A DNA stretch of 64,000 nucleotides from a bacterium (lineage in GTDB: Bacteria > JAAXHH01): positions 1,715,287 to 1,779,286 of the forward strand of contig OZ253560.1 in the NCBI GenBank assembly GCA_965262815.1. Reading direction: 5' to 3'. This document shows positions 9,112-42,647 of this stretch, piece after piece. Made by a program: the position numbers and the translations under genes. A model generated the notes under the pieces. That model saw only the letters and a program-made list of their open reading frames with translations. It was not told the origin of the DNA and made no database searches. Positions within the stretch are counted from its first letter, which is position 1. Each line of letters starts with the position of its first letter.

Positions 9112-9122
9112 GACGGAATCCG

Positions 9123-10672: not shown

Positions 10673-12075
10673 GCCAGGGACTCGAATTCGGCGGGGACCG
10701 CACGCACGTCATGATCGCCAGGGCGCGGAATCCCTGTCGAGGCCGTACCGGCCGTACCGGCTGTACCAATCAGATCGTATTCCATGGCGTCGGTAATGTC
10801 CACGGACACAAAGGCGCCGGGTGAGAGATCTTCGCCGGTGACCAGCACCTCGTTGTCGACCTCCGGCGCATCCGAAGCGGTACGTCCGCTGTAGTACCCT
10901 TCCTCTGTCCGTTCGTCGATCAGCACATTTACCGTCTGTCCCACGTATGCCTGGTTACGCTCGAGAGATACTTCGCGCTGCAGGGCCATGAGCCGGTTGT
11001 ATCGTTCCTGCTTGACGGACTCGGGCAATTGCTCATCGTACCGTGCGGCCGGGGTATGCTCTTCCTTCGAATACATGAATACGCCCATGCGGTCGAATCT
11101 CGTTTCTTCCGCGAAGTCGAACAGTTCCTCGAAGTCCGCCTCCGTCTCCCCGGGAAAACCCACGATGAAAGTGGTACGCAACGTCACATCTGGAATCCCG
11201 GCGCGGATCCGGTTCAAAAGCGCTCTCGTTTCCTTCGAGGTCGTTTCCCGGTTCATTCGCCTGAGCATGGGATCCGATATGTGCTGCAGCGGCATATCGA
11301 CGTAGTTGCACACATGCTCGAGATCGGCGAAGGCATGGATCAAGGTGTCGGTGAACCGCACGGGGTGGTTGTACAGCGGCCGGATCCACCGTATGCCATC
11401 CACGGCGTTCAGGGCGGCAAGCAGATCTTCCAGCCTGGCCGGCACCTCCAGGTCTTTGCCGTACCACGTGGTATCCTGGGAAATCAGGTTCAGCTCCACC
11501 GCCCCCTGGTCCGCAAGCATTCGCGCTTCTTCCACGAGGGAATCGACAGTTCGGCTTCTCTGGCTGCCCCGGATGGCCGGGATAATGCAGAAAGTGCACC
11601 GCCGGTCGCATCCCTCGGCGATCTTCATGTAAACGGAATGATTCGGGGTGGTGATGACCCTGGGATAAGAATAGTCGGTGGGCAGCGGCTGCCTGCGTAT
11701 TTCCCGCAGGGTCTCGTGGCGGTCGTGCAGGCGTTCCAGCAACTGGACGATCCGTGGGTACTGGTGCACGCCGATGACGGCGTCCACTTCCGGCATCTCC
11801 GCGACCAGGCCGTGGGCGTACCGTTGCGCCATGCATCCGGTGACTACCAGGGAAGTGCACTGGCCGTCCTCTTTGAACCGTGCCAGGTCCAGAATCGTTT
11901 CGATGGACTCTTCCTTGGCGGGACCGATGAACGCGCAGGTATTCACGATGATGACATCCGCCTCGCCATGGTCGGTCACCACGTCATAGCCGGCCCGGGT
12001 CAATTGGCCAAGCATGACTTCGGAATCCACCAGGTTCTTCGAACAGCCCAGGCTGGCGAGACTGATGTTGGGCAA
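10669..12075 (-). CDS. rimO: Ribosomal protein S12 methylthiotransferase RimO (radical-SAM MTTase)
   Basis: N-terminal LGCSKNLVDSE...NTCAFI (MTTase domain), radical-SAM CDRRCTFC, and a C-terminal TRAM region. Confidence 0.85.
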   Translation of the reverse strand: MPNISLASLGCSKNLVDSEVMLGQLTRAGYDVVTDHGEADVIIVNTCAFIGPAKEESIETILDLARFKEDGQCTSLVVTGCMAQRYAHGLVAEMPEVDAVIGVHQYPRIVQLLERLHDRHETLREIRRQPLPTDYSYPRVITTPNHSVYMKIAEGCDRRCTFCIIPAIRGSQRSRTVDSLVEEARMLADQGAVELNLISQDTTWYGKDLEVPARLEDLLAALNAVDGIRWIRPLYNHPVRFTDTLIHAFADLEHVCNYVDMPLQHISDPMLRRMNRETTSKETRALLNRIRAGIPDVTLRTTFIVGFPGETEADFEELFDFAEETRFDRMGVFMYSKEEHTPAARYDEQLPESVKQERYNRLMALQREVSLERNQAYVGQTVNVLIDERTEEGYYSGRTASDAPEVDNEVLVTGEDLSPGAFVSVDITDAMEYDLIGTAGTAGTASTGIPRPGDHDVRAVPAEFESLA

Positions 12076-12105
12076 AACGCTTCTCCGCTCTTTGGTCGAC
12101 GCCTG

Positions 12106-12756
12106 CTAGCGCAGATCGACCCATTCGACATCCGCGGGCGTCGTCATCCTGAACAGCCCGGGTGGAATCGCCGTGTTCAATTGAAAATCCATGAATCGCA
12201 GGGTAGTTTCTGATCCCATGTCGTCTGTATAGACTACCTTCTTCGTGAGCCAGGTGCCGTCGTCCACCCAGATCCGCAACTCGGGGATACCGTCTGTGGG
12301 CGCGACAGCCGTAAGCCTGAGTACGTAGAAGCTGGATCCTTCGATCTGTTCTCGGCCCTCCAGATCATACCGGTACCGGTTCGTGTAACTGAACAGGAAC
12401 TCGTCCGGACGCATTCCCGCCTTGCTTTCCTGAGCCGGCGACACGATGACCTGTCTATTGCCGGGCACGTAGGTCCATACCGATACTCCGTCGGAAATAA
12501 TGGTCTGAGCGACCTCTTCGAGGCGAAGAAGATCCTCGTCTCTCTGCAGAAACAGGCGGCCCTCGGTCTCGCTCCGCTGGTCGAGCACGGCCGCGTAAGT
12601 CGTAACGGAATACCTGGCCGCCAGCGACCTCACGCCATCCAGGCGCTGCTGCATCATTCCGGTCACGGCATCCGCCGAGTGGAGCTCCCGCGACGAATCA
12701 TATCCCTGAAACGCCAGCAATCCGGTCATCAAGCAGACCCAGAGATGGGTGACCAC
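12106..12756 (-). CDS. LolA-like outer-membrane lipoprotein carrier protein
   Basis: Signal peptide with a composition typical of LolA/LolB-fold proteins. It sits downstream of rimO in the same orientation. Confidence 0.55.
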   Translation of the reverse strand: MVTHLWVCLMTGLLAFQGYDSSRELHSADAVTGMMQQRLDGVRSLAARYSVTTYAAVLDQRSETEGRLFLQRDEDLLRLEEVAQTIISDGVSVWTYVPGNRQVIVSPAQESKAGMRPDEFLFSYTNRYRYDLEGREQIEGSSFYVLRLTAVAPTDGIPELRIWVDDGTWLTKKVVYTDDMGSETTLRFMDFQLNTAIPPGLFRMTTPADVEWVDLR

Positions 12757-12901
12757 GCTGCCTCCCCTTACGATTTATTTCCTCGAATCACCGCGAATTC
12801 AAGCCTGTAAATATGCACTTGCTACGCGCTTGCGTCAAGGCTTACCGGTCGGTCTGACCTGTCGAACCGGCGGTGGGTGAAATCGGCGTCGATGGATGCT
12901 C

Positions 12902-12946
12902 CTGATATAAAGAACGGGGAAAGGCCCCTTCGGTTCCCTCCCCGTT
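12902..12946 (-). terminator. Rho-independent terminator after the amidohydrolase gene
   Basis: On the minus strand, the GC hairpin gaacggggagggaaccgaaggggcctttccccgttc is followed by tttatatc. Confidence 0.6.
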
Positions 12947-12981
12947 CCATACAACGCTGGTTTGAGCTGCGGGACACCCGT

Positions 12982-14688
12982 TTAAGGCATTGGGACCCGG
13001 CCTCTTTCGTACCGTACCGTGCCGTCCACGATGGTATATACAATTTCCGTATCGAGAATCTCGTTTTCGGGTACGGTCATGATGTCCTTCGACAGCACGG
13101 TGAAATCCGCGAGTTTTCCGTTCTCGATGGAGCCAAGCACATCTTCGTGAAACGAACCGTAGGCGGCGTCCAGGGTATACGATTTCAGGGCTTCCTGGCG
13201 TGACATGCGCTGGTCGCCGAACATCCCGCCTTCCGGAGTGCCGTCAGGCAGCTCCCGGGTCACGCTGGCGTAAAAGGAAGCGATGGGGCTTATGTCTTCG
13301 ACCGGCGCGTCAGTCCCGTTGACGATCTTCACCCCTTCTTTCAACAGTTTCTGCCAGACATAGCCGCCTTCCACCGTGCGGGCGTGGCCGAGCCGGTCCG
13401 GGGCCCAGGGAAGATCGGAAGTCGCGTGTATCCCCTGCATGGAAGCGATCACGCCCAGCCTGGCGAATCTCGGGATATCGGCCTCGTCCAGGATCTGGGT
13501 ATGTTCGTCACGGAAACGGTGGTCCTTCACGTGGGGAAACTCCTTCATCGCCTTTTCGTACATGTCGAGCATCATGCGGTTGCCGCGGTCGCCGATGGCG
13601 TGGGTACATACCTGCCAGCCGTGCTCTAGTCCGAAGCGCGCGGCCTCGTAAATCGAATCGGGCGGCGTGGTGAAGAATCCGGAATTGCCCGGGTCGTCTT
13701 CGTAGGGTTCCAGCAGCCAGGCGCCCCTTGAACCGAGCGCCCCGTCACCGTACATTTTTACGGCGCGGATGGTCAGGAACCCACCGGGATGGGCCGACGG
13801 CGTTTTCAAGGCTCGCATGGTCGATAGATTCGAGGCCATCACGTAGACCCGCATGTCCAGCTTGCCCTGGTCGGCGTATTCCCTGTAGAGTTCGATCCCA
13901 TTCAGGCCCACACCGGCGTCGTCGAACATGGTGATGCCGTTGGCCAGGCATTCCTGGATGCCGAGTTCAAGGGCCTGGCGCCGCTGGTTTTCCGTAAACG
14001 AGGGAACACTCACCAGCCCCATGGCCTTGTCCACAAACACGCCCGTGGGATTGCCTTCCGCGTCCCGAATGATGTCCCCGCCTTCGGGTGATTGCGTCGT
14101 GCGGTCAATGCCCATCAGTTCCATGGCTTTGGCATTGGCGAATGCGGCGTGTCCATCCGCCCTTCGCAGGTAGACCGGGATATCGGGCACGGCCTCGCTC
14201 AACTCGTGATGGGTCATGAACCCGCGGACGGTGAGCGAACTGCGGTCCGTCCACTTTTCCTCGTGCCACCCGCGGCCGGTGATCCACTCGCCTTCGCCGA
14301 TGCCGTCAGCCGCCGCCAGTACCCGTTCGATCAACTCTTCGTAACCCGAAATACCGACCAGGTTGACCGTCATTTTGGCAATTCCGATGCCCATGAGATG
14401 GCCGTGACTCTCCTTCAACCCGGGAACCACGGTCTGTCCTTCCAGGTCGATCACCCGGGTATCCGGGCCGATAAAAGGTTCCACGTCCTCGTTGACGCCG
14501 ACTATCGCGATCCGGTTTCCGATGACGGCCACGGCCTGCGCCTTGGGCCGATCCTCGTCGAGCGTGTATACCGTACCGTTGACCAGCACCAGGTCCGCCG
14601 ATGATTTGCGTACCTGGGCCTGGCCGCCGGAGAACGAAATCATCATCATCAAGCCTGCGATCGCCACCACCAATACAGATTTCCGCAT
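12982..14688 (-). CDS. Secreted metal-dependent amidohydrolase (Amidohydro_3 family)
   Basis: Signal peptide MRKSVLVVAIAGLMMMISFSGGQA and an HGH metal-binding motif (ESHGHLMGIG). 568 aa is typical for Amidohydro_3 proteins. Confidence 0.75.
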   Translation of the reverse strand: MRKSVLVVAIAGLMMMISFSGGQAQVRKSSADLVLVNGTVYTLDEDRPKAQAVAVIGNRIAIVGVNEDVEPFIGPDTRVIDLEGQTVVPGLKESHGHLMGIGIAKMTVNLVGISGYEELIERVLAAADGIGEGEWITGRGWHEEKWTDRSSLTVRGFMTHHELSEAVPDIPVYLRRADGHAAFANAKAMELMGIDRTTQSPEGGDIIRDAEGNPTGVFVDKAMGLVSVPSFTENQRRQALELGIQECLANGITMFDDAGVGLNGIELYREYADQGKLDMRVYVMASNLSTMRALKTPSAHPGGFLTIRAVKMYGDGALGSRGAWLLEPYEDDPGNSGFFTTPPDSIYEAARFGLEHGWQVCTHAIGDRGNRMMLDMYEKAMKEFPHVKDHRFRDEHTQILDEADIPRFARLGVIASMQGIHATSDLPWAPDRLGHARTVEGGYVWQKLLKEGVKIVNGTDAPVEDISPIASFYASVTRELPDGTPEGGMFGDQRMSRQEALKSYTLDAAYGSFHEDVLGSIENGKLADFTVLSKDIMTVPENEILDTEIVYTIVDGTVRYERGRVPMP

Positions 14689-31026: not shown

Positions 31027-32727
31027 ATGGAAGCCGCGTCGACCTGTCCCCCGCCTACCAATCCCGAAACCATGGACGTTCAGATAGAAACCGCCATCCT
31101 GCTGGTTGAAGACTCCTCCCGCGGCCGTGACGAGAAGCACTACGGCCTGACCCAGCGCGGTTACCGCGTGATCGCCGTGGAAAACAGCGACCACGCCCTC
31201 AACGTCCTGGCCACGGAATCCACGAACGTCATCATATCGGATCTGAACGCGCCCGGGATCGACGGGCTGCGCCTGATGAGCGTCGCACTCGGCAGGAATC
31301 CCGAGGTCGGTGTCATCCTGATGACCGAACCGGGTTCCATGGATCTTGCCGTCGCCGCCATGAAGGAGGGGGCGTACGATGTGCTGGAAAAACCCGTATA
31401 CGTGGAGAAGCTTGCGGCAGAAATCGACAAGATCCGGGAGCGGCAGCACATTGTGCAGGAAAACCGAGAGCTGCTGCACCAGCTGGACTCCCGCTATGGT
31501 TTCGAGAATATCGTGGGCCGGTCCGCGTCCATGCAGCGCATACGGGACCAGATCCTCCAGATCGCGGATACCCAGTCGACGGTACTGATTTTCGGCGCAA
31601 GCGGTACGGGCAAGGAACTGGTGGCCCACGCTTTACATCAGGCCAGTTCACGGAGGGACAGGTCCTTCGTGCCGGTCTTCTGCAACGCCCTCTCGGAAGG
31701 GGTGATCGAAAGCGAACTGTTCGGACACGAAAGAGGAGCGTTCACGAACGCGGTCAAGACGTACAAGGGGCGTTTCGAACTGGCCGACGGAGGCACGCTC
31801 TTTCTCGACGAGGTCGGCGAACTTTCGCCGTCCACGCAGGTGAAACTATTGCGGGTCCTGCAGGAACGCAAGTTCCAGCGCGTGGGGAGTACGAACTGGC
31901 TCCGGACGGACACCCGGGTCATCGCGGCGACGAACCTCGACCTCGAAGCCGAAATCGAAAAGGGACGTTTCCGTGAAGACCTGTATTACCGGCTCCGGGT
32001 AGTAACTCTTTCCCTCCCGCCTCTTCGAGAACGTAAGGAAGACCTCCCCCTGCTGATCGACCACTGCATCCGTCGGTTCAGCGAACGGGAAAACAAGCGG
32101 ATCGAGCGCATCGACCAGCAGGCCCTGGAGTTGCTGTCGACCTACCACTGGCCCGGAAACGTCCGGCAGCTCGAAAACTGCATCGAAGGCATGATCGTCA
32201 TGGGGGCCGGGGAAACGCTGACGGTGGCGGATGTCCCCGAGTTCGTTCGGCATCCCCAGGCGGAACCGCTGTCGGGCGCGTTGAACGACGATCCGGAACA
32301 TGGTGACGGCCTGACGCCGGATTTCATCCAATACCTGGCCATGAAGGTCGCCGAACAACGTAACGTACCCGTCAGGAACGTCACCGACGGGGCGCTGGCC
32401 ATCCTGGCCGCCGTCGACTGGTCGAAGGACGGCGGATCACTGCGTCGATGCCTGGAAACCATGGTATTGCTCGCCGATGGATCCGAGCTGGACGTGGAGG
32501 ACATCCCGGCGGAATACCTGCCCGACCTGTCGAAGCAATCCGGCGCGGACGAGGAGGACGAAGACGGGGTGGACATCCGCGTAGGCATGTCGATGAAAGA
32601 AAGCGAACGAAGGCTGATCGCCGCGACCCTGGCCGCGTGTGGACAGAACAAGGCGCGGACCGCCCGGGTACTTCAGATCGGCCAGAGAACCCTGTTTCGG
32701 AAAATCAAGACCTATCACCTGGAGTAG
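31027..32727 (+). CDS. NtrC-family response regulator / sigma-54 enhancer-binding protein with non-canonical GAFTNA motif
   Basis: Receiver domain (ILLVEDSS...IISDLNAPGIDG), AAA+ sigma-54 interaction domain (GASGTGKELVAHALH, ESELFGHERGAFTNA, R-finger), a long linker, and a Fis-type HTH (ARTARVLQIGQRTLFRKIKTYHLE). The start could instead be MDVQIETA at 31072. Confidence 0.85.
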   Translation: MEAASTCPPPTNPETMDVQIETAILLVEDSSRGRDEKHYGLTQRGYRVIAVENSDHALNVLATESTNVIISDLNAPGIDGLRLMSVALGRNPEVGVILMTEPGSMDLAVAAMKEGAYDVLEKPVYVEKLAAEIDKIRERQHIVQENRELLHQLDSRYGFENIVGRSASMQRIRDQILQIADTQSTVLIFGASGTGKELVAHALHQASSRRDRSFVPVFCNALSEGVIESELFGHERGAFTNAVKTYKGRFELADGGTLFLDEVGELSPSTQVKLLRVLQERKFQRVGSTNWLRTDTRVIAATNLDLEAEIEKGRFREDLYYRLRVVTLSLPPLRERKEDLPLLIDHCIRRFSERENKRIERIDQQALELLSTYHWPGNVRQLENCIEGMIVMGAGETLTVADVPEFVRHPQAEPLSGALNDDPEHGDGLTPDFIQYLAMKVAEQRNVPVRNVTDGALAILAAVDWSKDGGSLRRCLETMVLLADGSELDVEDIPAEYLPDLSKQSGADEEDEDGVDIRVGMSMKESERRLIAATLAACGQNKARTARVLQIGQRTLFRKIKTYHLE

Positions 32728-32746
32728 TCTTCCAAGGAGTCCCGGA

Positions 32747-34279
32747 GTGGAAGGTCGGACGATACTCGTCGTGGATGGCGAAACGGACAGCCAGAGGCAC
32801 GCGGTGCGTATCCTGCGGGAAGCGGGATACGAAGCAAAGGGGACCGGCGACGCGGCCGAGGCGTTGAGCGTGATGAGGAAGGACCACCCTTCCGCCGTGC
32901 TCATCGATCTCACCCTGAACGACACCGACCCGGACCGCCTCATTCGCACCATTTCGGGGAAGCACCCCGATACGGACATCATCCTCACCACGCGGCAGCA
33001 CCAGCCGCCCCGGCAGTACCGCCAGCTCGACGCCAGCGACTATATCGAAAAACCCGTAGATCCCGAAGAACTGCTTACGAAGATGCGCATGCTGGACCTG
33101 AGACGGGAGTTTCACCACATGTTCCAGCTTGTGGGAAGAGACGAACGCTTCATCGCCGCCATCGAGTCGGTGCTCCAGGTGGCGCCCACGGGTATCCAGG
33201 TTCTGCTCACCGGCGAAAGCGGTACCGGCAAGGAAGGGTTCGCCCGGGCGATCCACCATTACAGCGACCGGCGAGACGGTCCCTTCATACCGATCAACTG
33301 CGGGGCCATCGCCGAAGGGATATTGGAAAGCGAGCTGTTTGGCCACGAAAAAGGCGCGTTCACGGACGCGAAGGGTCAGCGGAAGGGATACTTCGAGCAG
33401 GCGGACGGGGGAACGCTGCTTCTCGACGAGATCGGTGAGATGCCCCGTACCACGCAGGTAAAGCTGTTGCGCGTCCTGGAGCAGCAGGAATTCATCCGGG
33501 TCGGCGGATCGACGCCGGTGAAGATTAACGTCCGGCTGATCGCGTCGACCAACCGGGACCTCGCCGAGGAGATCCGCGATGGGACCTTTCGCCAGGATCT
33601 CTACTATCGGCTCAACGCCGTGCGCATCCATCTGCCGGCCTTACGTGAACGCCGAGAAGACATCCCCAGGCTGATTCACCATTTCCTTCACGAGGCACGG
33701 GAAAGACATGGCGTGTCTCCCCCTGTCTTCACGGCGGAAACCCTCGCGACGCTCTCGGACTACGAGTGGCCGGGGAACATCCGGGAACTGCGCAACCTCG
33801 TCGAAACCCTGGTGGTTACGGCCGGTAAACCCCGGATTGACGCGGACGACCTGCCGGACGCCATCTATACGCCGCCCATGTCGAACCGCGCCCTGCCGGT
33901 CCCGCAGAACCGGAATCCGGAGGACATGGACCGGGAGATGTTCTACAAGATCCTGTGGCAGATCCTTACAGCCATTCACGACCTTCCTTCCAAGATCACA
34001 ACCGCCTTCGGCGGGGGAAATCCCGCCCAGCTGCCGGAACGCTTGCAGCTTCCCGCCGCCGTGGAAGAGGAACAGGACATCGAACCTCCCGCCATGGGGG
34101 TTTCGGACAGCGGCGACCTGGACCGGCTGCGCACGATGGGAGACTGGGAACGGGAGGCCATACGGCGCGCCCTCGAGCGCAACGAAGGCCACCGTGGCAA
34201 GGCCGCGCGGGATCTCGGCATCAGCGAGCGGTCTATATACCGCAAGATAAAGGACTACGGTCTGGACGACCGCGCCTGA
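32747..34279 (+). CDS. NtrC-family response regulator / sigma-54 enhancer-binding protein with non-canonical GAFTDA motif
   Basis: GTG start after GGAG. Receiver domain (ILVVDGETD...LIDLTLNDTD), AAA+ domain (GESGTGKEGFARAIH, ESELFGHEKGAFTDA), and HTH (ARDLGISERSIYRKIKDYGL). Confidence 0.85.
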   Translation: MEGRTILVVDGETDSQRHAVRILREAGYEAKGTGDAAEALSVMRKDHPSAVLIDLTLNDTDPDRLIRTISGKHPDTDIILTTRQHQPPRQYRQLDASDYIEKPVDPEELLTKMRMLDLRREFHHMFQLVGRDERFIAAIESVLQVAPTGIQVLLTGESGTGKEGFARAIHHYSDRRDGPFIPINCGAIAEGILESELFGHEKGAFTDAKGQRKGYFEQADGGTLLLDEIGEMPRTTQVKLLRVLEQQEFIRVGGSTPVKINVRLIASTNRDLAEEIRDGTFRQDLYYRLNAVRIHLPALRERREDIPRLIHHFLHEARERHGVSPPVFTAETLATLSDYEWPGNIRELRNLVETLVVTAGKPRIDADDLPDAIYTPPMSNRALPVPQNRNPEDMDREMFYKILWQILTAIHDLPSKITTAFGGGNPAQLPERLQLPAAVEEEQDIEPPAMGVSDSGDLDRLRTMGDWEREAIRRALERNEGHRGKAARDLGISERSIYRKIKDYGLDDRA

Positions 34280-35768: not shown

Positions 35769-36992
35769 ATGCCCCGACTGGCCATAAACGGTGCGTCACC
35801 GGTACGGACTGAACCCTTCCCCGCCTGGCCCATGAACCTGGAAGCAAGCGCCCGGGCCGCCAGTGAAACCATAGGCTCGGGAAAATGGGGAAGCAACCAC
35901 GGCGAGAAAGTACGAAGCTTCGAAAAGCGCTTCGCCGCGTTCCAGCAAGCCGCCCACGGCATCGCCGTCAGCAACGGCACCACGGCGCTGTGTCTCGCAC
36001 TGCAGGCGGTCGGCATCGAACCCGGCGACGAAGTCATCGTTCCGGCCTATACGTTCATCGCGTCGGCCAGCGCAATCGTGATGTCGAATGCCATACCCGT
36101 GTTCGTCGACATCGATCCCGATTCCTACAACCTGGATCCCCACCTGGTCGAACAAGCGGTAACTCCGCGAACCAGGGCCGTGGTCGCGGTTCATTTCGCG
36201 GGCCTGCCGGCGGACATGGACCGGCTCGGCGATATCGCGAATCGGCACGGCCTGACCGTGATAGAGGACGCGGCCCAGGCCCACGGCGCGCGATGGGGAG
36301 GACAGGGCGTGGGCGGTATCGGCGCGATGGGGGCCTTCAGCTTCCAGTCATCCAAAAACCTCAACGCCGGCGAGGGCGGCATCGTGCTGACCAACGACGA
36401 CGGTCTGGCGGAAGCGGCGCGGTCCCTCGCCGACTGCGGACACGTCCCATCGGAACCCCGGTACAACCACTACAGCGTGGCCGGCAACCACCGTATGACC
36501 GAAATGCAGGGCGCCCTGCTCCTGGTCCAGATGGAATATCTCGAGGCGCAGGCAAGCAAGCGCCACGAGAACGGCGACTACCTGACCGAACGGCTCGGGA
36601 ATATCGACGGTATCCTTCCGGTGTCCAGACCCGCGAAGGCCGACCGCCACGCGCGGCATCTCTACCTGTTCAGATACAACGACGAAGCCTTCCGGGGCAT
36701 CCCGAAATCTCGGTTCATCGAGGCCCTGCGCGCGGAAGGTATTCCCGCCAGTCCCGGTTACTCCATTCCCCTGTACAAGCAGCCGGTCTTCAGGGAGCGG
36801 AACTACGGCATTTACCAAAGTAATGCGCTGTCGGCCATCGAATTCGGCAGGATGAATCTGCCGGTAACGGAAAGGGCATGCAGTTCGGAGTCGGTCTGGT
36901 TCACGCAGAATGTGCTGCTGGGCAACCGGGGGGACATGGACGATATCGTCCGGGCCGTCGCGAAGATAGGGGATCACCGCGACGAACTGTAG
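35769..36992 (+). CDS. DegT/DnrJ/EryC1/StrS family PLP-dependent aminotransferase
   Basis: Fold-type I sugar aminotransferase blocks (AVSNGTTAL, VIVPAYTF, IEDAAQAHGA, SFQSSKNL with the PLP lysine). Confidence 0.85.
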   Translation: MPRLAINGASPVRTEPFPAWPMNLEASARAASETIGSGKWGSNHGEKVRSFEKRFAAFQQAAHGIAVSNGTTALCLALQAVGIEPGDEVIVPAYTFIASASAIVMSNAIPVFVDIDPDSYNLDPHLVEQAVTPRTRAVVAVHFAGLPADMDRLGDIANRHGLTVIEDAAQAHGARWGGQGVGGIGAMGAFSFQSSKNLNAGEGGIVLTNDDGLAEAARSLADCGHVPSEPRYNHYSVAGNHRMTEMQGALLLVQMEYLEAQASKRHENGDYLTERLGNIDGILPVSRPAKADRHARHLYLFRYNDEAFRGIPKSRFIEALRAEGIPASPGYSIPLYKQPVFRERNYGIYQSNALSAIEFGRMNLPVTERACSSESVWFTQNVLLGNRGDMDDIVRAVAKIGDHRDEL

Positions 36993-37027
36993 GATGGCGG
37001 TCAATCCTGCCGGCGGATACTTCCCGC

Positions 37028-38119
37028 TTACGCTTCTTCCTTCACCGTGGATAGAAGATGGACCGGCTTTCCTCCGGACCGCCGGAACTCGATCAACTCG
37101 GCCATGATGCTGACCGCGATCTCCTCGGGGGTATCGGCCTGAATCTCCACGCCGATCGGCGCGTGCACCTGGTCCAGCAGGTGCCTGGGCGTTCCCTTTT
37201 CTTCCAGTTTCTTCCACATCAGGGCGATTTTCCGGCGGCTGCCGATCATGCCGATGTACGCGGCGTCGGTCCACACCGCCTGCTCGATGACGGGCTGGTC
37301 CCACTGGTGGCCCCGGGTCACGGCGATCAGGTAGGATGAACCGTCGATGGCCAGCTTGCCGACGACCTCGTCGAAGGCATCCACGACCACCTCGGCGGCC
37401 TCGGGAAACCGTTCATGGTTCGCGAACGCCGGGCGGTCGTCCACCACGATGATCCTGAATCCCACGGTAGCGGCGAGCCGGGCAATGGCCCTGCCGACGT
37501 GACCGCCGCCGAAAAGGAACAGTTGCGGCGCCGGCCAGATGGACTCGATGAAGACCCGGGTCTCCACTCCTTCGTGTTCCAGCGTGACCACCTTCAGCAG
37601 GTTCTCCGTAATTTCGATGTCCGAATCCAGACGGACCCGGTCATCCAGGGCGGGGTCTCCCAGCGTTCCGATGGTCTCTCCCGACCCGGTAACCAGCATC
37701 TTGCTGCCTTCCGCACCGACTTGTCCCGACACCAGTGTGGCCAACAGTCCGATACCCCGCGTGTCATGGAGGCGGCGGATCGCTTCGAACACCTCCTGCA
37801 TCGATCCCGAATTGATCGGTTCGGTGAAAATCTCCACGTTACCGCCGCAGTTCAGGCCCTCGTCGCCGGCGTGCTTCTCGGTCAGAATGAAATGCTGCAA
37901 CCGGGGCGAAGACCTTTCCATCACCTCCCGCGCCTCGGCCCAGACGTCTGCTTCCAGGCAACCTCCGCCCACCGTTCCCGTGAAGGTACCGTCGCTCTTG
38001 ACGAGCATTTTCGCCTTCTTGCTCATCGGCAGCGATCCCTTGCTCGATACGATGGTGGACAGCGCCGCCCGTTCACCCCGCGACAGTACTTCCACGACCT
38101 CGTCGAATACTTCTTTCAT
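37028..38119 (-). CDS. XdhC/CoxI-family molybdenum-cofactor insertion/maturation protein
   Basis: N-terminal XdhC_CoxI domain (ERAALSTIVSSKGSLP...GTVGGGC) and a C-terminal Rossmann-like XdhC_C (LFLFGGGHVGRAIARLAATVGFRIIVVDDR). Confidence 0.8.
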   Translation of the reverse strand: MKEVFDEVVEVLSRGERAALSTIVSSKGSLPMSKKAKMLVKSDGTFTGTVGGGCLEADVWAEAREVMERSSPRLQHFILTEKHAGDEGLNCGGNVEIFTEPINSGSMQEVFEAIRRLHDTRGIGLLATLVSGQVGAEGSKMLVTGSGETIGTLGDPALDDRVRLDSDIEITENLLKVVTLEHEGVETRVFIESIWPAPQLFLFGGGHVGRAIARLAATVGFRIIVVDDRPAFANHERFPEAAEVVVDAFDEVVGKLAIDGSSYLIAVTRGHQWDQPVIEQAVWTDAAYIGMIGSRRKIALMWKKLEEKGTPRHLLDQVHAPIGVEIQADTPEEIAVSIMAELIEFRRSGGKPVHLLSTVKEEA

Positions 38120-38140
38120 GAGCCTGCTCCCGATGAAGGG

Positions 38141-38602
38141 TCATACCACCTTGACGGGAATCTCCATGAATCCCGTCTCGTCGTCGACCCACCGGTACAT
38201 CCTGATTTCGCTCACGGTATCGCCCGTAGCGGAAAGGACCAGGTAACCCGGTTCCGGGTCCAACCAGTCGGTCAAGGCTTCCATCCGGTCCTTTTCGGAG
38301 AAATACGCCGGTTGGTCCGGGTGGGAATGGTAGAATCCGATGACCCGCGCGCCGGGTGGTTCGAACCTTCCGAAGAACAACGTCTCCATGTCCTCACGGC
38401 CGAATACGTAGGCGGTCCGGGCATCCCTGGGATACTGGGCCGGATCCTTCGCGTGCAGTTCGTTCTGAATGTTCGTACAACGGTGTACCCGCCAGGTATC
38501 CGGATCATCCGCTCCCGTGAGAAAACCACAGCACTCCTGCGGATACTCCTCGACGGCATGGGCGGCCATGTCGTCGTACACGGCCCGGGGGATCGGCAGC
38601 AT
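38141..38602 (-). CDS. JAMM/MPN+ (Mov34) family metalloprotease
   Basis: JAMM motif E(x)n-HSHPDQPAYFSEKD with the upstream EEYPQECCGFLTG. 153 aa. The start overlaps the mrp stop by 1 nt. Confidence 0.8.
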   Translation of the reverse strand: MLPIPRAVYDDMAAHAVEEYPQECCGFLTGADDPDTWRVHRCTNIQNELHAKDPAQYPRDARTAYVFGREDMETLFFGRFEPPGARVIGFYHSHPDQPAYFSEKDRMEALTDWLDPEPGYLVLSATGDTVSEIRMYRWVDDETGFMEIPVKVV

Positions 38603-39435
38603 CAGGACCGAACCACGACGGGCACCGGCGCCGCCTGGCTTTCGATTTCGGCCAAGACGGACGCCCGGATGCTTCTGAAGGCCGCCATCTCCTCAGTGCG
38701 CGCCGGGTCGAGGAAGATCGGTACTCCGGCGTCTCCCCCCGCGCAGACTGCCGGCGAGAGCGGGATCTCTCCCAGGAAAGGCAGGCCCAGTTCGTCGCTC
38801 AGCGCCCTGCCGCCTCCCTGGCCGAAAATGTAGGTACGCCTGGTCCGATCACCCGATCCGTCGTTGATGTAGAAACTCATGTTTTCGACGATACCCAGCA
38901 CGGGAACCCGCAGGCGCTGAAACATCGTGATAGACTTGCGGACGTCCAACAGGGCGACCTGCTGGGGTGTCGTGACGATAACGGCCCCGGTCAGCTCGGT
39001 AGACTGGACCAGGGTAAGTGCCGCGTCGCCGGTACCGGGAGGGAGATCGACCAGCAGATAATCCAGCTTGCCCCAGGCCACGTTTCCGAGAAACCCCTTG
39101 ACCATCTTCCCGACCAGGGGGCCTCGGTAGATCACCGCGTCCGACGGACCCGCGACAAAACCGACGGAAACCAGCCTGATTCCATGCTGAATGATGGGTT
39201 GGATACTTCCGGAAGGATCTTTTTCGAGGGACCCGGTAACGCCCATCATCTGGGGTACGTTCGGGCCGTACACGTCTGCGTCGAGCAGGCCCACCGACTG
39301 TTGCGCTTCGGCCAGGGCCAGGGCCAGGTTGACGCTGACGGTCGACTTTCCTACACCGCCCTTGCCGCTGGCCACCGCGATAACGTGCCGGATGCCGGTC
39401 AAAGACTTCTGTTGGGTTTCAGATTCCGCTGCCAA
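38602..39435 (-). CDS. apbC: Fe-S cluster carrier P-loop NTPase Mrp/ApbC
   Basis: Deviant Walker A VASGKGGVGKST, ParA/MinD fold, and a CxxC-like C-terminal region. Confidence 0.9.
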   Translation of the reverse strand: MAAESETQQKSLTGIRHVIAVASGKGGVGKSTVSVNLALALAEAQQSVGLLDADVYGPNVPQMMGVTGSLEKDPSGSIQPIIQHGIRLVSVGFVAGPSDAVIYRGPLVGKMVKGFLGNVAWGKLDYLLVDLPPGTGDAALTLVQSTELTGAVIVTTPQQVALLDVRKSITMFQRLRVPVLGIVENMSFYINDGSGDRTRRTYIFGQGGGRALSDELGLPFLGEIPLSPAVCAGGDAGVPIFLDPARTEEMAAFRSIRASVLAEIESQAAPVPVVVRS

Positions 39436-39490
39436 AGTTATCGACCCGCGCTAACGGAATGCCGGTGTGCCAGGTGTACGCTACACAGGC

Positions 39491-39814
39491 TTAAACGTAA
39501 AACGACTCGCCGCAACCGCAGGAGCCCTTGGCGTTGGGATTGTTGACCTTGAAACCGGCGCCCATGAGCCCTTCCACGTAGTCCAGTTCCGCGCCCATCA
39601 GGTAAATAGCGCTTTTGCTGTCGACAAAGACCCTTACGCCGTTCTGCTCGATAATCTGGTCGCTATCGCCGGCCTGCTTGTCAAAAGCAAGACGGTACTG
39701 AAAACCGGAACATCCGCCACCGGCGATCATAACGCGCAGTGCGAGGTCCGGATTGCCCTGATCCTCTATCATGGTTTTAATCTTGTCGGCGGCAATATCC
39801 GTTACAGTGACCAT
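39491..39814 (-). CDS. erpA: A-type iron-sulfur cluster carrier (IscA/ErpA/HesB family)
   Basis: GGGCSGFQY ... C-terminal GSCGCGESF motif. The start is taken at MVTVTD after GGAGG. Confidence 0.88.
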   Translation of the reverse strand: MVTVTDIAADKIKTMIEDQGNPDLALRVMIAGGGCSGFQYRLAFDKQAGDSDQIIEQNGVRVFVDSKSAIYLMGAELDYVEGLMGAGFKVNNPNAKGSCGCGESFYV

Positions 39815-39903
39815 GATATTCAACCTCCCATTGCAAAGACCGTAAGTGGTTTGATTTCCGTTATCTTGCATCGACCGGTATGAAACACCATATTCTATTT
39901 ATC

Positions 39904-39932
39904 TATATAACCACAAGTCCCGCGGTTGTCAA
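39904..39932 (-). promoter_or_regulatory. Sigma-70-type promoter for the erpA-mrp-JAMM-xdhC operon (TTGACA-N17-TATATA on minus strand)
   Basis: The minus strand reads TTGACAAccgcgggacttgtggtTATATA. Confidence 0.5.
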
Positions 39933-40017
39933 ATCCTTTATCCGAATCGCGGCGCGGGATCATCGCCTTAAACCCATGCGCTCCCTCCGAGCGAATCCTT
40001 CTGTGCACGGGGACAGT

Positions 40018-42093
40018 TCAGCGCAGCAAAAGCAGTTTGCCGCCTTCCTCGAAGGCACCGGCCTTCAACCTGTAGAAGTAGACTCCGCTCGGAACGGTCC
40101 GGCCGGCACCATCCGTGCCGTTCCATAGCTTCGAGTACCTGCCCGGTGCCTGATCGGCATCGATCAGTACCCGTACCTTCCTGCCGAGCAGATTGTAAAT
40201 CGTCAATGTGACACGGGAGGACTCCGTCAGTTCATAGCGTAACTGCGTGCTCGTGGCAAACGGATTGGGCGCGTTCGCATACAGCGTTGCCGCCAGGACG
40301 GCTGCGTCGCCGGGATCATAGGTAATCCGGGTAGCCACGGGCTCCGCCGACAGCGGAAAACCTTCCCGGCCGACGGGCTGCAGCCGGTATTCGTACGACG
40401 CTCCCGTCTGGACGGCCGTATCCGTGAAAACATAGGATTTCGAATTTTCGTTGTTCCCTCCTGTTCGCGTTACGGGTATGGAGGATAGCAGTTTGAAAGA
40501 TCCGTCGGGGTAGTTCCTGCGCTCGATCCGGTAGGAGAGGAGATTGATCTCCAGCCCGGCGGTCCAGGACAGAAAAACCCCGCTTGGGCTGCTTTCGGCG
40601 GTCAGATCAAGTACCGTTCCCCGTGATTCCGTCAACAGGGCGTTGAGCGCGTGGACGATTCCGTAACCGTTCAGCGTATCCGGTGCGGCGGCCTGGGTCG
40701 CGGTACTTCGCAACGCCCGTTGCACCCTGTCGGGCGTCCAGTGGGGATAGGCTTCCAGCAGCAGCGCGGCCACGCCGGCCACCAGGGGCGCAGAGAAGGA
40801 AGTGCCGTCGCTCCGAAGGTAGTCGTCCATGGAAAGGGGATCCACCGTATAGACGTCTTGCCCCATGGCCATCACGTCCGGCTTGATGCGGCCGTCGAAG
40901 GTGGGGCCGATGGACGAGAACGCAGTTCGCCTGCCCGCGGCATCCACGGCGCCCACGGAAACCACCTCTTCCGCGTCGGCCGGCGCTCCCATCTTTTCGT
41001 AAGGGAAACCGCCCAGGTTCCCCATGGCGTTCACGACCACGATGCCGCGGCGCGCCGCCATCGCCGCCGCCCTCGTGACGACGGCCGTTTCCCCGTCCAT
41101 GTCGGAATAGGTGTACCAGTCGCTGTACCCGACCGAACTGCTGATCACGTCCGCCCCGAGACTGTCGGCCCATTCCATGGCGGCAAGCCACCAGTCCTCC
41201 TCGATCTCCACCTCGAATGGGACGGACTCCGTGTTGGCCAGTAGGTAATGGGCACCGTAGGCCGGTCCGATCAGCTGTCCCGGCGCATAACCGCCGATGG
41301 TCGAAAGTACCTGCGTGCCGTGTTCGTGGAATTCGATTTCACCGATCTCGAATTCGTCTTGAATGAAGTCGCGTTCACCCACAACCCGGGTTCTCAGGCT
41401 GTCGAAGGCCACGTGATCCAGTTTGAATCCTGTATCGAAGAGCGCCACCAGCACACCGTGGCCCGACAGACCCAGGTCGTGCAGTTCCGGTACGCGCAGT
41501 TGGTTCATCTGGATGTCCGAGGGGCCGTAATCGAGTTGCGTAGCGCGGACCGTGCGAAGCCCTAGGCCTGTTTCTGCCTGTCCCTGTTGTTGCGACGGGA
41601 CCGGCGACGGCCGCCGCAAGCTGGTGACTGCTTCGATTTTCAACACGAAAGACTGGTCGGCCAGTTGTAGAATATCCGCCGGCGCGATGGATACGCTCGC
41701 CGCGTTGATCCATCGGGACACCTGCAGGACCCGTCCTCCAGATTCTACGATCCGGGCAACATAGGGAGCATGAACCGGTATGTCCTCCCAACCCGTCAGC
41801 CTGTCGCTTCGTGTAGTTAGCCGGCGGCGTGCCCGGGGCATCAGGCGGTCTTCGGCGGCGCCCAGGGCAGCGCCGATCTCCCCCTCGTCCTGGATCCCCT
41901 TATCCGCAAGGTAAACCCAGACCTTCATCGATTCACCGGGTAATCTCGAAGCAATTTCATTCTGAAGGCGGTCGGATATCTTCCTTTCGTCTTCGGGGGA
42001 GGCGGTCTGCCGCAAGGGCCGCTGATCGGGCGGCGGACTCCCGAGCGCGTGGGAGGTTAGCAAAACGGCCAGGATCGGCCAGCAAATTTTCAT
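40018..42093 (-). CDS. Secreted S8 (subtilisin-like) serine peptidase with T9SS C-terminal sorting domain
   Basis: Signal peptide MKICWPILAVLLTSHALG. Catalytic D (ALFDTGF), H (HGTQV), S (GTSFSAPLVAG). The C-terminal Por_Secre_tail-type CTD is LYANAPNPFATSTQLRYEL...VTLTIYNLLGRKV...GVYFYRLKAG...LLLLR. Confidence 0.88.
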   Translation of the reverse strand: MKICWPILAVLLTSHALGSPPPDQRPLRQTASPEDERKISDRLQNEIASRLPGESMKVWVYLADKGIQDEGEIGAALGAAEDRLMPRARRRLTTRSDRLTGWEDIPVHAPYVARIVESGGRVLQVSRWINAASVSIAPADILQLADQSFVLKIEAVTSLRRPSPVPSQQQGQAETGLGLRTVRATQLDYGPSDIQMNQLRVPELHDLGLSGHGVLVALFDTGFKLDHVAFDSLRTRVVGERDFIQDEFEIGEIEFHEHGTQVLSTIGGYAPGQLIGPAYGAHYLLANTESVPFEVEIEEDWWLAAMEWADSLGADVISSSVGYSDWYTYSDMDGETAVVTRAAAMAARRGIVVVNAMGNLGGFPYEKMGAPADAEEVVSVGAVDAAGRRTAFSSIGPTFDGRIKPDVMAMGQDVYTVDPLSMDDYLRSDGTSFSAPLVAGVAALLLEAYPHWTPDRVQRALRSTATQAAAPDTLNGYGIVHALNALLTESRGTVLDLTAESSPSGVFLSWTAGLEINLLSYRIERRNYPDGSFKLLSSIPVTRTGGNNENSKSYVFTDTAVQTGASYEYRLQPVGREGFPLSAEPVATRITYDPGDAAVLAATLYANAPNPFATSTQLRYELTESSRVTLTIYNLLGRKVRVLIDADQAPGRYSKLWNGTDGAGRTVPSGVYFYRLKAGAFEEGGKLLLLR

Positions 42094-42647
42094 GGGGGAC
42101 TTTCGTGGTCGGGCCCGCCGGGCTTGCTGACGGATTTTCGTCTGATCCGGTACAGCATGAGTCCGAGGATTGCCAGAAAAACAACGCTTCCCAGGGCCAG
42201 TGAAAGATCCACGCCCAGGGCGCCCGCCATCTGCCTTCCGAGGTAGAACCCCAGGACGCCGCCGATCTTGAACCGCAGGGACTCGGGAAGAATCGGGATC
42301 AGGCTCCCCGTTGCGATGCCAATTACCATGAGGACAAGGAGCCAACCGGATTGGGCGAACAGTATCAACGGACGCTGAACCCGGATCCTGTTCCAGGCAA
42401 GTAATCCTATGAGGATGGGCAGAACGTATGCCCCGTATCCCAGGGCGAGCATCGCCCCGTAGGAAATCAGGGCGCCGGGACGGCCGGCCAGGTTGACCAC
42501 TTCTTCCGGATCCTGGCTTGAATTGGGGTAATCATTTTCCGCGTGGGTTACCAGGCTGACCAGGACGAAGACCGCGACGGGAACCAGGAGAATCCCGATC
42601 GCGTGCATGCGGCGTTCGATGGCTCGGCTGAACGGAGGGAAGCTCAA
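42090..42647 (-). CDS. Stand-alone FtsK N-terminal 4-TM domain-like membrane protein
   Basis: Four TM helices with FtsK_4TM-like motifs (SLVTHAENDYPNSSQ; VNLAGRPGALISY; GAYVLPILIGLLAWNRIR vs E. coli FtsK SFNPSDPSWSQ / HNLGGMPGAWLAD / MAYTIPVIIVGGCWFAWR). No motor domain. ATGA overlap with the protease gene. Confidence 0.6.
   Translation of the reverse strand: MSFPPFSRAIERRMHAIGILLVPVAVFVLVSLVTHAENDYPNSSQDPEEVVNLAGRPGALISYGAMLALGYGAYVLPILIGLLAWNRIRVQRPLILFAQSGWLLVLMVIGIATGSLIPILPESLRFKIGGVLGFYLGRQMAGALGVDLSLALGSVVFLAILGLMLYRIRRKSVSKPGGPDHESPP

Follow-up and report, generated by a model that had tools for sequence, protein, structure and literature searches.

The locus lies within a 64,000-nucleotide stretch of bacterial DNA that was analyzed as a whole and is referred to here as the window. 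It comprises four tightly packed, co-directional genes on the minus strand, in the order erpA, a Mrp/NBP35-type ATPase gene, a JAMM peptidase gene, and xdhC, together with the following upstream features:

39904 to 39932, minus strand: promoter-like site read from the sequence (TTGACA at 39932-39927, 17-nt spacer, TATATA at 39909-39904)
39815 to 39903, minus strand: 5' leader (about 85 nt) in which alignment revealed conserved sequence blocks; it has a GGGAGG ribosome-binding site
39491 to 39814, minus strand: erpA, A-type Fe-S carrier, 107 aa (NCBIfam ErpA equivalog; Pfam Fe-S_biosyn)
38602 to 39435, minus strand: Mrp/NBP35-family P-loop ATPase, 277 aa (from TTG 39435) or 266 aa (from TTG 39402) (Pfam PF10609)
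38141 to 38602, minus strand: predicted JAMM/MPN+ zinc peptidase of the CysO-associated (Mec-type) subfamily, 153 aa (Pfam Prok-JAB and JAB)
37028 to 38119, minus strand: xdhC, XdhC/CoxF-family molybdenum-cofactor (Moco) chaperone, 363 aa (Pfam XdhC_CoxI and XdhC_C)

A previous sequence-only reading of this DNA had described four tightly linked minus-strand genes with a 1-nt overlap between mrp and the JAMM gene. Both observations stand: the four genes form a single operon and the mrp/JAMM junction reads TGATG, with gaps of 21 nt between the JAMM gene and xdhC and of 55 nt between erpA and mrp. The most likely start of erpA is ATG 39814, which has GGGAGG 8 nt upstream and is the choice of gene callers, rather than the longest-ORF start at 39871. 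For the Mrp-like gene, TTG 39402 (266 aa) is also used by gene callers. Long plus-strand ORFs across the operon (e.g., 37415-38833 and 39467-39883) were dismissed as shadow ORFs of sequence with 60% GC.

The TTGACA-N17-TATATA site that had been taken for a promoter is present, with a conserved GATAAAG immediately 5' of TTGACA. Alignment revealed that GATAAAG..TTGAC..N17..TTATATA is kept in nine relatives, the rest of the spacer having diverged. The site was not listed in a consensus promoter scan because the scan rule demands a T as the sixth base of the -10 hexamer, and it is retained as a candidate promoter on conservation alone. An RNA element in the leader was rejected, as an Rfam search of the leader returned no match and no conserved fold was detected (-1 kcal/mol, 5 pairs).

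The order mrp-JAMM-xdhC was kept in every relative with a JAMM 52-95% identical to that of the window (about 19 loci, labeled Latescibacterota, ‘Gemmatimonadota’, and Zixibacteria; hereafter, the clade). Loci with erpA-mrp-JAMM-xdhC comprised L011-L020 (JAMM 95-55% identical), L091, L096, L097, L101-L104, and L181. Among clade loci, the JAMM gene is flanked by overlaps of 1-4 nt or by gaps of at most 33 nt. The deeper branches carry a six-gene form with 4-nt overlaps between genes (L019, L096, L097, and L181), which comprises an IscS/NifS-type cysteine desulfurase gene, erpA, mrp, the JAMM gene, xdhC, and nadA, the last encoding an Fe-S enzyme. Since L181 combines this form with the downstream synteny of the window (DegT-FtsY-Trx), the six-gene form looks ancestral and the four-gene operon of the window looks like a trimmed version of it, with the desulfurase and NadA genes lost from the window locus. 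The presence of a cysteine desulfurase at the head of the operon in deeper relatives strengthens the previously proposed link to cysteine sulfur. In addition, the JAMM gene occupies the same position in all close relatives; its absence from them had been named as an outcome that would count against the proposal, and the proposal is therefore not refuted on these grounds.

Phylogenetic reconstruction by neighbor joining placed the clade JAMMs in a monophyletic group, with JAMMs from Nitrospirota as the sister group. This single origin is compatible with a JAMM gene that landed once in a housekeeping operon and has been carried along since with no functional tie to its neighbors, as is the turnover of flanking genes (i.e., the loss of the desulfurase and NadA genes from the locus). 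However, the JAMM gene has kept precisely this place between mrp and xdhC, its frame overlapping or nearly abutting theirs, through divergence to 52-55% protein identity and the rearrangement of both operon ends. Moreover, JAMM (dN/dS 0.11-0.23) is under the same constraint as the products of the neighboring genes. We consider the absence of a functional tie distinctly unlikely.

The JAMM motif reported previously (HSHPxxxxxxSxxD) was recovered as part of E23...H92-S-H94-P-x6-S102-x2-D105, and E23, H92, H94, S102, and D105 are invariant across 30 aligned homologs. The protein matched Prok-JAB in Pfam (70.9 bits, 1e-19; cutoff 25), and an AF2 model adopted the JAMM (MPN) fold (pLDDT 87.5, pTM 0.84). 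The best Foldseek matches to this model were 2kcq, 2kks, 5lda (PfJAMM1-SAMP2), and Rpn11, all with a probability of 1.00, such that the closest solved structures are prokaryotic JABs and PfJAMM1 bound to SAMP2. JAMM is predicted to be catalytically intact and, as judged from dN/dS, is under purifying selection.

Homologs of JAMM with 35-48% identity (about 146 loci) were identified in Rrf2-cysK/M-cysO-JAMM operons of the Mec/CysO cysteine pathway, arranged as CysM-JAMM-CysO or Rrf2-CysK-CysO-JAMM. A CysO gene was detected in 42 of the 70 genome loci and 53 of the 76 metagenome loci, and mrp, erpA, or xdhC in the clade arrangement was detected at none of these about 146 loci. The clade and cysO-linked JAMMs have all catalytic and subfamily-specific residues in common, and 25 columns are invariant across them, including ECCG, N44, Q46, H50, P54, R59, D60, and Y65. 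Collectively, these observations place the window JAMM in the CysO-associated (Mec-type) subfamily, and the kinship with Mec-type enzymes noted previously is borne out by the adjacency of the 35-48% homologs to cysO and cysK/M. Most of the CysO ORFs at those loci extend beyond GG, with 1-2 extra residues in four of six aligned examples, and so would need a Gly-Gly-cutting peptidase of the JAMM kind.

The nearest known enzyme in this respect is Mec+ (Mycobacterium tuberculosis Rv1334 type), which hydrolyzes CysO-cysteine in the CysO-CysM pathway and is alike in JAMM motif and fold. The subfamily signature ECCG, NIQNxLH, and PRDARTAY is common to the window JAMM and its cysO-linked homologs. In contrast to Mec+, the putative peptidase of the window has neither cysO nor cysM nearby, and its gene is wedged between the Mrp-like ATPase gene and xdhC. 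The clade JAMMs also carry private changes after the catalytic Asp, near the active-site loop, that comprise a 3-residue deletion and several residues.

To identify partners of JAMM, Pfam tables of called genes were screened for positions of about 9.9-64 kb in the window and about 4 kb past its right end, whereas at 0-9.7 kb selected ORFs were scanned with Pfam (the ORF at about 4.9-8.5 kb was named from sequence only). Genes for ThiS/MoaD/CysO, E1 (ThiF/MoeB), CysM/K, or xdhAB/coxLMS were not found within about 70 kb. Likewise, tblastn with CysO, MoaD, ThiS, and CysM probes across the whole window recovered no partner gene, and a screen of small ORFs ending in GG in the window recovered no carrier. 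The previous observation that the window lacks a MoaD/ThiS-like gene and xdhAB agrees with these results. Nor is there a cysO or cysM nearby that would provide the conventional context considered previously as an argument against the proposal. In the relatives, cysO, cysM, and cysK were absent from about 19 clade loci, moa genes were absent from the clade loci examined, and structural genes of Mo-hydroxylases (xdhAB, coxLMS, and paoABC) were absent from the window and clade loci. A profile search with six Latescibacterota CysO queries returned >8000 matches, and none of the best 120 listed was attributed to a clade chromosome. One ThiS-like match in L018 (tblastn, E 0.007) was spurious, as it lies on the other strand inside a sigma-54 activator gene. 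The sister JAMMs from Nitrospirota either adjoin cysK-cysM without cysO or stand alone, so that a distant carrier gene is normal for this subfamily.

The explanation that we favor, albeit tentatively and at somewhat less than even confidence, is that JAMM is still a Gly-Gly-specific hydrolase of a sulfur-carrier protein that is encoded elsewhere in the genome and that it is co-expressed with users of cysteine sulfur. JAMM would cut a CysO/MoaD-type carrier right behind its C-terminal Gly-Gly, and this cut would trim residues encoded after GG, release cysteine from a CysO-Cys adduct, or both. In this lineage, the JAMM gene would have left a cysteine-synthesis operon and become fixed between the Mrp-like ATPase gene and xdhC, in an operon that consumes cysteine sulfur. 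There, desulfurase persulfide would feed Fe-S carriers and XdhC-bound Moco, the latter in the manner of NifS4 and XdhC in Rhodobacter capsulatus (PMC2997495), such that the release of cysteine or carrier would be co-expressed with its use. Several points count against this explanation. First, no CysO/MoaD/ThiS, E1, or CysM gene was found within the same approximately 70 kb. Second, if JAMM merely supplied cysteine, a place beside the desulfurase would be more natural than coupling between the Mrp-like and XdhC genes. Third, the clade-private deletion and residues after the catalytic Asp could reflect a changed partner. Since no ubiquitin-like substrate was found, the ‘deconjugation step in cofactor sulfur trafficking’ suggested in the sequence-only reading is an inference.

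An alternative is that JAMM acts in the synthesis of the molybdenum cofactor and not in that of cysteine. It might expose a MoaD-type GG end, cleave a fusion of MoaD to MoaE, or detach the one from the other, after which XdhC could receive Moco by way of molybdopterin synthase. The archaeal desampylases HvJAMM1 and PfJAMM1, likewise stand-alone JAMMs of about 130-150 aa, show that a JAMM can be tied to Moco synthesis, with SAMP1-MoaE conjugates among the substrates of HvJAMM1. In mycobacteria, MoaX combines MoaD and MoaE in one protein that is cleaved at GG. The desampylases provide both the best NCBIfam match of the window JAMM (the haloarchaeal desampylase model NF041370, its only match) and one of its top structural matches, with PfJAMM1-SAMP2 as the closest solved complex. 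In addition, xdhC directly follows the JAMM gene throughout the clade, and the two often overlap. However, identity to HvJAMM1/PfJAMM1 is about 20%, the NCBIfam match scored 58.7 bits against a cutoff of 130, and the host of the window is bacterial with no SAMP or E1 gene in sight. Furthermore, all of the nearest JAMM homologs are tied to cysO/cysK/cysM rather than to moaD/moaE, no clade locus encodes moa genes, and the closest XdhC homologs outside of the clade work without any JAMM. A role in Moco synthesis is unlikely.

ErpA exceeded the cutoff of the NCBIfam equivalog NF010147 (140.8 bits, cutoff 117), has the three ligand cysteines (C-x(n)-C-G-C) within a clade-conserved GGGCSGF...GSCGCGESF, and is 79-96% identical across the clade (dN/dS 0.05-0.13). 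XdhC matched PF02625 (86.9 bits) and PF13478 (150.4 bits) above their cutoffs. It has the GGGC motif in the XdhC_CoxI N-domain (GTVGGGCLE is conserved) and the XdhC_C Rossmann domain, and is 67-95% identical across the clade. The NCBIfam model XdhC_rel_AOR (332.9 bits, cutoff 350) and the XdhC equivalogs scored slightly under their cutoffs. The closest XdhC homologs outside of the clade are encoded in NUDIX-MoxR AAA-VWA(CoxE)-XdhC clusters without JAMM, and in those examined (61-64% identical) the xdhC gene comes after genes for a MoxR-type AAA ATPase and a VWA_CoxE protein, as in the CoxD-CoxE-CoxF genes of Mo-Cu CO dehydrogenase (PMC4240915). In contrast, the partners in the clade are a Mrp/NBP35-type P-loop ATPase and a JAMM peptidase rather than a VWA protein.

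The Mrp-like protein matched PF10609 (NUBPL/ParA; 303 bits, 1.5e-90) and has the deviant Walker A P-loop GKGGVGKS in common with ApbC/Mrp/Nbp35 Fe-S carrier ATPases; it scored 229 bits against the PDB 8zkc chain (deposited as ‘iron-sulfur cluster carrier protein’). However, it lacks the N-terminal DUF59, and alignment to solved Mrp/ApbC chains revealed ENMSFYINDGSGD where 8zkc, 3kb1, and 2ph1 have ENMS..C..CG, that is, N..S and a 3-residue insert in place of CxxC. The CxxC cluster ligands are absent from all 14 clade orthologs, in which a single clade-conserved Cys lies within ‘VCAGGD’, and the ApbC and MrpORP equivalogs scored under their NCBIfam cutoffs. The previous designation of this protein as a Mrp Fe-S carrier is therefore unproven, since both ligand cysteines are missing in every clade member. 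Among the 150 nearest representatives of 50% clusters, at least 38 likewise have no CxxC (7 more were unscorable), which suggests that CxxC-less Mrp is a widespread, uncharacterized variant and rules out its loss as a clade-specific co-adaptation with JAMM.

JAMM might also be a part of the maturation machine itself, in line with the deconjugation step suggested in the sequence-only reading. A ubiquitin-like thiocarboxylate would then be the sulfur donor for Fe-S assembly or for the Moco bound to XdhC, and JAMM, in a complex with the Mrp-like ATPase and XdhC, would recycle or release the carrier. JAMM could conceivably act directly in the transfer of sulfur to Moco or Fe-S clusters. The JAMM gene is translationally coupled to both of its neighbors in genomes of the Latescibacterota type as well as in Zixibacteria, the ancestral operon begins with a cysteine desulfurase gene, and the clade-private changes lie near the JAMM active-site loop. 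In addition, the Mrp-like partner lost CxxC and gained a clade-conserved Cys, and no paper pairs the genes of the operon. Conversely, a carrier gene is absent from all of the about 19 clade loci, and neither Moco sulfuration nor Fe-S assembly is known to draw on a protein thiocarboxylate in any pathway. The desulfurase NifS4 of Rhodobacter capsulatus binds XdhC and supplies sulfur to the Moco that XdhC carries, and its persulfide suffices (PMC2997495). The ancestral six-gene form resembles this pair in encoding XdhC with an IscS/NifS-type desulfurase, but differs in the absence of adjacent xdhAB, in the additional ErpA, Mrp-like ATPase, JAMM, and NadA genes, and in the loss of the desulfurase from the window's own locus. 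The maturation machine is, in our assessment, rather unlikely. Equally doubtful is its fuller form, in which the Latescibacterota-type and Zixibacteria lineages would have wired a thiocarboxylate system into cofactor maturation, with JAMM in physical contact with XdhC and the Mrp-type ATPase that lacks CxxC. In that form, a dedicated cysteine desulfurase would act first, and JAMM would deliver or recycle the sulfur on the carrier for use in Fe-S clusters or as the sulfido ligand of Moco.

JAMM might instead cut a substrate that is not ubiquitin-like, for instance a maturation factor, a molybdoenzyme, or an Fe-S enzyme with a C-terminal tail to be removed. A parallel is the endopeptidase that completes [NiFe]-hydrogenase maturation beside the Mrp/MinD-type ATPase HypB. 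The Mrp-like ATPase lacks cluster ligands and matched the Mrp/MinD-type chain in PDB 3vx3 (6e-29), the Thermococcus HypB nickel-insertion ATPase, as a relative; it could therefore be a nucleotide switch for cofactor insertion. However, the subfamily residues common to clade and cysO-linked enzymes point to substrates of one kind for both, and to our knowledge no proteolytic step occurs in Mo-hydroxylase maturation. The C-terminus of XdhC (‘RRSGG|KP..’) was rejected as a cleavage site, as the ‘SGG’ is replaced by SKG, AKG, or SAG in relatives and the same stretch is found in JAMM-less relatives. A substrate of this kind is very unlikely.

The placement of a JAMM gene between a Mrp-type ATPase gene and xdhC, with no carrier gene nearby, is real and undescribed. 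Our literature search recovered no paper that pairs XdhC with a JAMM or with ApbC, and a 2006 survey of JAB neighborhoods makes no mention of XdhC, Mrp, or desulfurase contexts. Bacterial JAMM peptidases are understood almost only through neighboring ubiquitin-like sulfur carriers, whereas this one has long been retained in evolution with a Mrp-type ATPase on one side and a Moco chaperone on the other, and the ancestral operon runs from a cysteine desulfurase gene to nadA. The locus also flags a common CxxC-less Mrp variant of uncharacterized function. Molybdenum hydroxylases are abundant in such symbiont and marine genomes. If JAMM acts in a maturation pathway, protein thiocarboxylate chemistry or a proteolytic step would be linked to molybdenum hydroxylase maturation, and a thiocarboxylate system wired into cofactor maturation would represent a route for sulfur that no organism is known to use. 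If, as we favor, JAMM still serves CysO, the locus would show how poorly known and mostly uncultured phyla couple their cysteine supply to Fe-S and Moco sulfuration at the level of transcription.

Family scans bear out the gene names that the sequence-only reading gave to four minus-strand genes (XdhC, JAMM, Mrp/NBP35, and ErpA):

37028-38119, minus strand: XdhC, 363 aa, with Pfam domains XdhC_CoxI and XdhC_C
38141-38602, minus strand: JAMM peptidase, 153 aa, matching Prok-JAB (1e-19) and JAB
38602-39435, minus strand: Mrp/NBP35-type ATPase, TTG start, matching NUBPL/ParA (1.5e-90)
ATG at 39814, minus strand: ErpA, 107 aa, above the NCBIfam equivalog cutoff

The sequence likewise confirms the 1-nt mrp/JAMM overlap, a TGATG junction in which stop and start have one base in common, and the complete JAMM motif (E23, H92-S-H94, S102, and D105). 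JAMM and xdhC are spaced by 21 nt and erpA and mrp by 55 nt. The Mrp-like ATPase has an alternative start at a second TTG (39402), used by gene callers elsewhere. For ErpA, the ATG at 39814 is the most probable true start; it is preceded by GGGAGG and was also chosen by gene callers on identical contigs. ORFs at 37415-38833 (plus), 39467-39883 (plus), and 36348-37304 (minus) were rejected as shadow ORFs that overlap the true genes, either antisense to them or in another frame; such ORFs are typical of 60% GC DNA and are wrongly selected by a longest-ORF gene map.

The TTGACA-N17-TATATA motif claimed upstream of erpA was located at 39932-39904, although a consensus promoter scan, the rule of which requires T at the last -10 position, misses the site. 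It is credible as a putative promoter because GATAAAG..TTGAC..TTATATA is kept in a spacer alignment of nine relatives in which the remaining spacer has diverged. The GATAAAG box lies just upstream of the -35 hexamer (39933-39945), and the erpA leader of ~85 nt (39815-39903) also has blocks kept among relatives, with zero Rfam matches and no conserved fold. The leader or the GATAAAG box may represent a putative regulator binding site.

Screening of one genome per species yielded 80 loci. The mrp-JAMM-xdhC order was identified in all 10 loci with a JAMM 95-55% identical to that of the window (L011-L020), and erpA was also present in each except L020, whose contig starts within mrp. Exact-protein look-ups and a JGI metagenome scan recovered the same arrangement in eight further loci (L091, L096, L097, L101-L104, and L181). 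The neighborhood comparison suggested by the sequence-only reading thus finds JAMM retained in the operon of relatives, and the refuting outcome that this reading named, loss of JAMM from the operon, was not seen. Relatives are labeled Latescibacterota, ‘Gemmatimonadota/Gemmatimonadetes’, or bacterium, and the identical JAMM protein is encoded on several long-read metagenome chromosomes of ~3.65-3.8 Mb.

A six-gene operon was identified in L019, L096, L097 (Zixibacteria), and L181, in the order IscS/NifS-type class-V cysteine desulfurase, ErpA, Mrp-like ATPase, JAMM, XdhC, and quinolinate synthase NadA, in most cases with 4-nt overlaps flanking the JAMM gene. Downstream of this operon, L181 shares the synteny of the window (DegT, FtsY, thioredoxin, and a sigma-54 activator), and the six-gene form therefore looks ancestral, with the desulfurase and nadA lost from the locus in the sub-lineage of the window. 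The operon is old, and purifying selection acts on each of its four genes, with a dN/dS for JAMM (0.11-0.23) inside the range of its neighbors. Set beside this constraint, a JAMM gene that is simply carried along, functionally unconnected to the operon, is improbable.

Every catalytic residue, together with the signature ECCG, N44-I-Q46, H50, P54, R59-D60, and Y65, is common to JAMMs of the clade (relatives with JAMMs 52-95% identical) and to those linked to cysO. Features private to the clade are few (W37, R41, M72, P98, W113, E117, and the loss of three residues that follow the catalytic Asp). The JAMM as modeled by AlphaFold (pLDDT 87.5) has the MPN fold and in structural comparison most closely resembles two prokaryotic JAB proteins, PfJAMM1 in complex with SAMP2, and Rpn11. 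With the residues shared with cysO-linked JAMMs in view, cleavage of a non-ubiquitin-like target during enzyme maturation is the remotest of the roles considered. Several clade JAMMs (P0008, P0010, P0011, P0013, P0018, and L018:10001-10534) carry a variable, low-complexity insert of 9-27 residues rich in Asp, Pro, Asn, and Ala (e.g., DDPYDPANQANPANPVNSVDPV) directly behind ‘LTGTD’, on the connection from the catalytic Glu strand to the following one; the JAMM of the window is without it. Some homologs are fusions of JAMM to a NIL domain (237-248 aa; P0051, P0060, P0075, P0078, P0085, P0088, P0092, and P0110).

In a neighbor-joining tree, the clade forms one branch, the sister of which is a Nitrospirota group with JAMM after cysK-cysM without cysO, or alone. 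A distant carrier gene is therefore not unusual in this JAMM subfamily. The next-closest homologs (35-48% identical) lie in CysM-JAMM-CysO(-NIL-Rrf2-CysK) operons in the genome set and mostly in Rrf2-CysK-CysO-JAMM operons in the metagenome set, with a CysO gene in 42 of 70 and 53 of 76 loci, respectively. They belong to the Mec/CysO system type covered in the survey of Iyer et al. 2006 (PMC1779556). None of the ~146 Mec-type loci has the erpA-mrp-JAMM-xdhC arrangement. Only one, L063 (Latescibacterota; 9054-13264), has an XdhC nearby (44% identical to that of the window, 1.2 kb past cysO, after CysM-JAMM-CysO and an rpsT on the other strand), which may be chance. L034 and L085 each contain a distantly related Mrp-family gene with a CxxC motif (31-34% identical), on the opposite strand and about 8-10 kb off.

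Few CysO ORFs stop exactly at GG; among six aligned C-termini, four extend beyond GG by one or two residues (AIAGGC, AIAGGRV, AIAGGS) and two have longer tails. Since these ORFs run past GG, they need a peptidase that cuts after it. CysO proteins with one or two such residues adjoin Mec-type JAMMs at L036:9944-10222 and L033:12132-12410, and also in L084 and L063. In two cases the additional residue is Cys (AIAGGC), such that the primary translation product mimics the CysO-Cys adduct, the presumed peptidase substrate. In two Latescibacterota loci (L023:10915-11172 and L030:10866-11123), a free-standing 85-aa ORF directly follows cysO and is putatively NIL-like by position.

Partner genes were sought with Pfam on called genes (~9.9-64 kb of the window and ~4 kb past its right end) and on selected ORFs at 0-9.7 kb (an ORF at ~4.9-8.5 kb was named by sequence alone), with tblastn of the whole window using CysO, MoaD, ThiS, CysM, and CysK probes, and with a screen of small ORFs with a GG end. 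These identified no ThiS, MoaD, CysO, E1-like, CysM/K, or Mo-hydroxylase structural genes in the window, in agreement with the earlier statement that MoaD/ThiS-like and xdhAB genes are absent from it. Neighbors of the operon are housekeeping genes: an S8 peptidase, PurSLQ, sigma-70, and SecA on one side, and a convergent DegT-type aminotransferase, FtsY, thioredoxin, and two sigma-54 activators on the other. The latter pair, tandem sigma-54-dependent response regulators at 31027-34279 (566 aa; 510-546 aa) beside thioredoxin and FtsY, is kept with the locus in relatives. Upstream of the operon (40018-42647), a small FtsK_4TM membrane protein and the S8 subtilase are neighbors kept in the sub-lineage of the window; the C-terminal end of the subtilase gives a weak FlgD_ig-like match, and gene callers assign the protein 691 aa, a length that a 775-aa ORF overstates. 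Outside the operon, a single sulfur-transfer gene was seen in the window, a two-domain rhodanese sulfurtransferase (3115-3966) 34 kb away.

These data establish the family of the JAMM, its intact active site, purifying selection, the age of the operon, and gene contexts in relatives, whereas the substrate and the logic of co-expression are inferred. In the likeliest of the readings considered, which we place at somewhat below even odds, the JAMM is a Mec-family hydrolase. It would still cut directly after the C-terminal Gly-Gly of a putative CysO/MoaD-type carrier, its gene having moved from a cysteine-synthesis operon into an operon that spends cysteine sulfur. Recipients of this sulfur, released by the desulfurase, would be the Fe-S carriers, NadA, and Moco on XdhC. 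The reading is weakened in that CysO in the same genome is putative only. Moreover, the slot between mrp and xdhC, with its overlapping frames, hints at a tie closer than cysteine supply, such as a new sulfur route that depends on a carrier and has JAMM as an integral component beside Mrp and XdhC, which we consider unlikely.

XdhC is strongly conserved across the clade. NifS4, a desulfurase of R. capsulatus, is a binding partner of XdhC and sulfurates the Moco that XdhC carries (PMC2997495), and this fits the desulfurase that heads the six-gene operon. Action of JAMM on a MoaD-type carrier for Moco synthesis is also unlikely, though slightly less so than the new route. XdhC homologs just outside the clade (L092, L093, L099, and L100; 61-64% identical) follow a MoxR-type AAA ATPase and a VWA_CoxE protein in four of four loci looked up, both preceded by a NUDIX gene in L092 and L093, with no CO-dehydrogenase or xanthine-dehydrogenase structural genes within 6-7 kb. 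This order corresponds to CoxD-CoxE-CoxF, a pattern known from Mo-hydroxylase maturation (PMC4240915). Compared with the clade operon, these clusters thus indicate one chaperone type with two partner sets.

ErpA is a standard A-type carrier with three cysteines present. Relative to solved Mrp/ApbC chains, the bridging-cluster CxxC of the Mrp-like ATPase is replaced by N..S and a 3-residue insert. The CxxC is missing in all clade orthologs, which have in common a new single Cys in ‘VCAGGD’. The protein lacks the N-terminal DUF59 and does not reach the equivalog cutoff of either ApbC or MrpORP. That CxxC loss is unique to the clade was rejected: among the closest 150 representatives of 50%-identity clusters (P0361-P0510), the motif is also missing from at least 38, about a quarter, with 7 more unscorable. 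Such variants have, for example, F/Y-x-x-P-D-x-G or PPDLPD..YY-IFG, and many keep the N-terminal DUF59. Since the loss is common beyond the clade, the Mrp-like ATPase is by its sequence a member of a widespread Mrp variant, with a putative Fe-S carrier role. The earlier interpretation is supported in part: the arrangement is kept in relatives, but the Fe-S carrier role assigned to Mrp is unproven, and the proposed deconjugation step in cofactor sulfur trafficking is hypothetical.

A literature search found no paper pairing XdhC with JAMM or with ApbC/Mrp, and a survey of JAB neighborhoods (PMC1779556) has no XdhC/Mrp-type context for JAMM. Each component is of a known kind; the novelty lies in the conserved slot that a Mec-type JAMM occupies, with no carrier gene, within a desulfurase-ErpA-Mrp-XdhC-NadA module.
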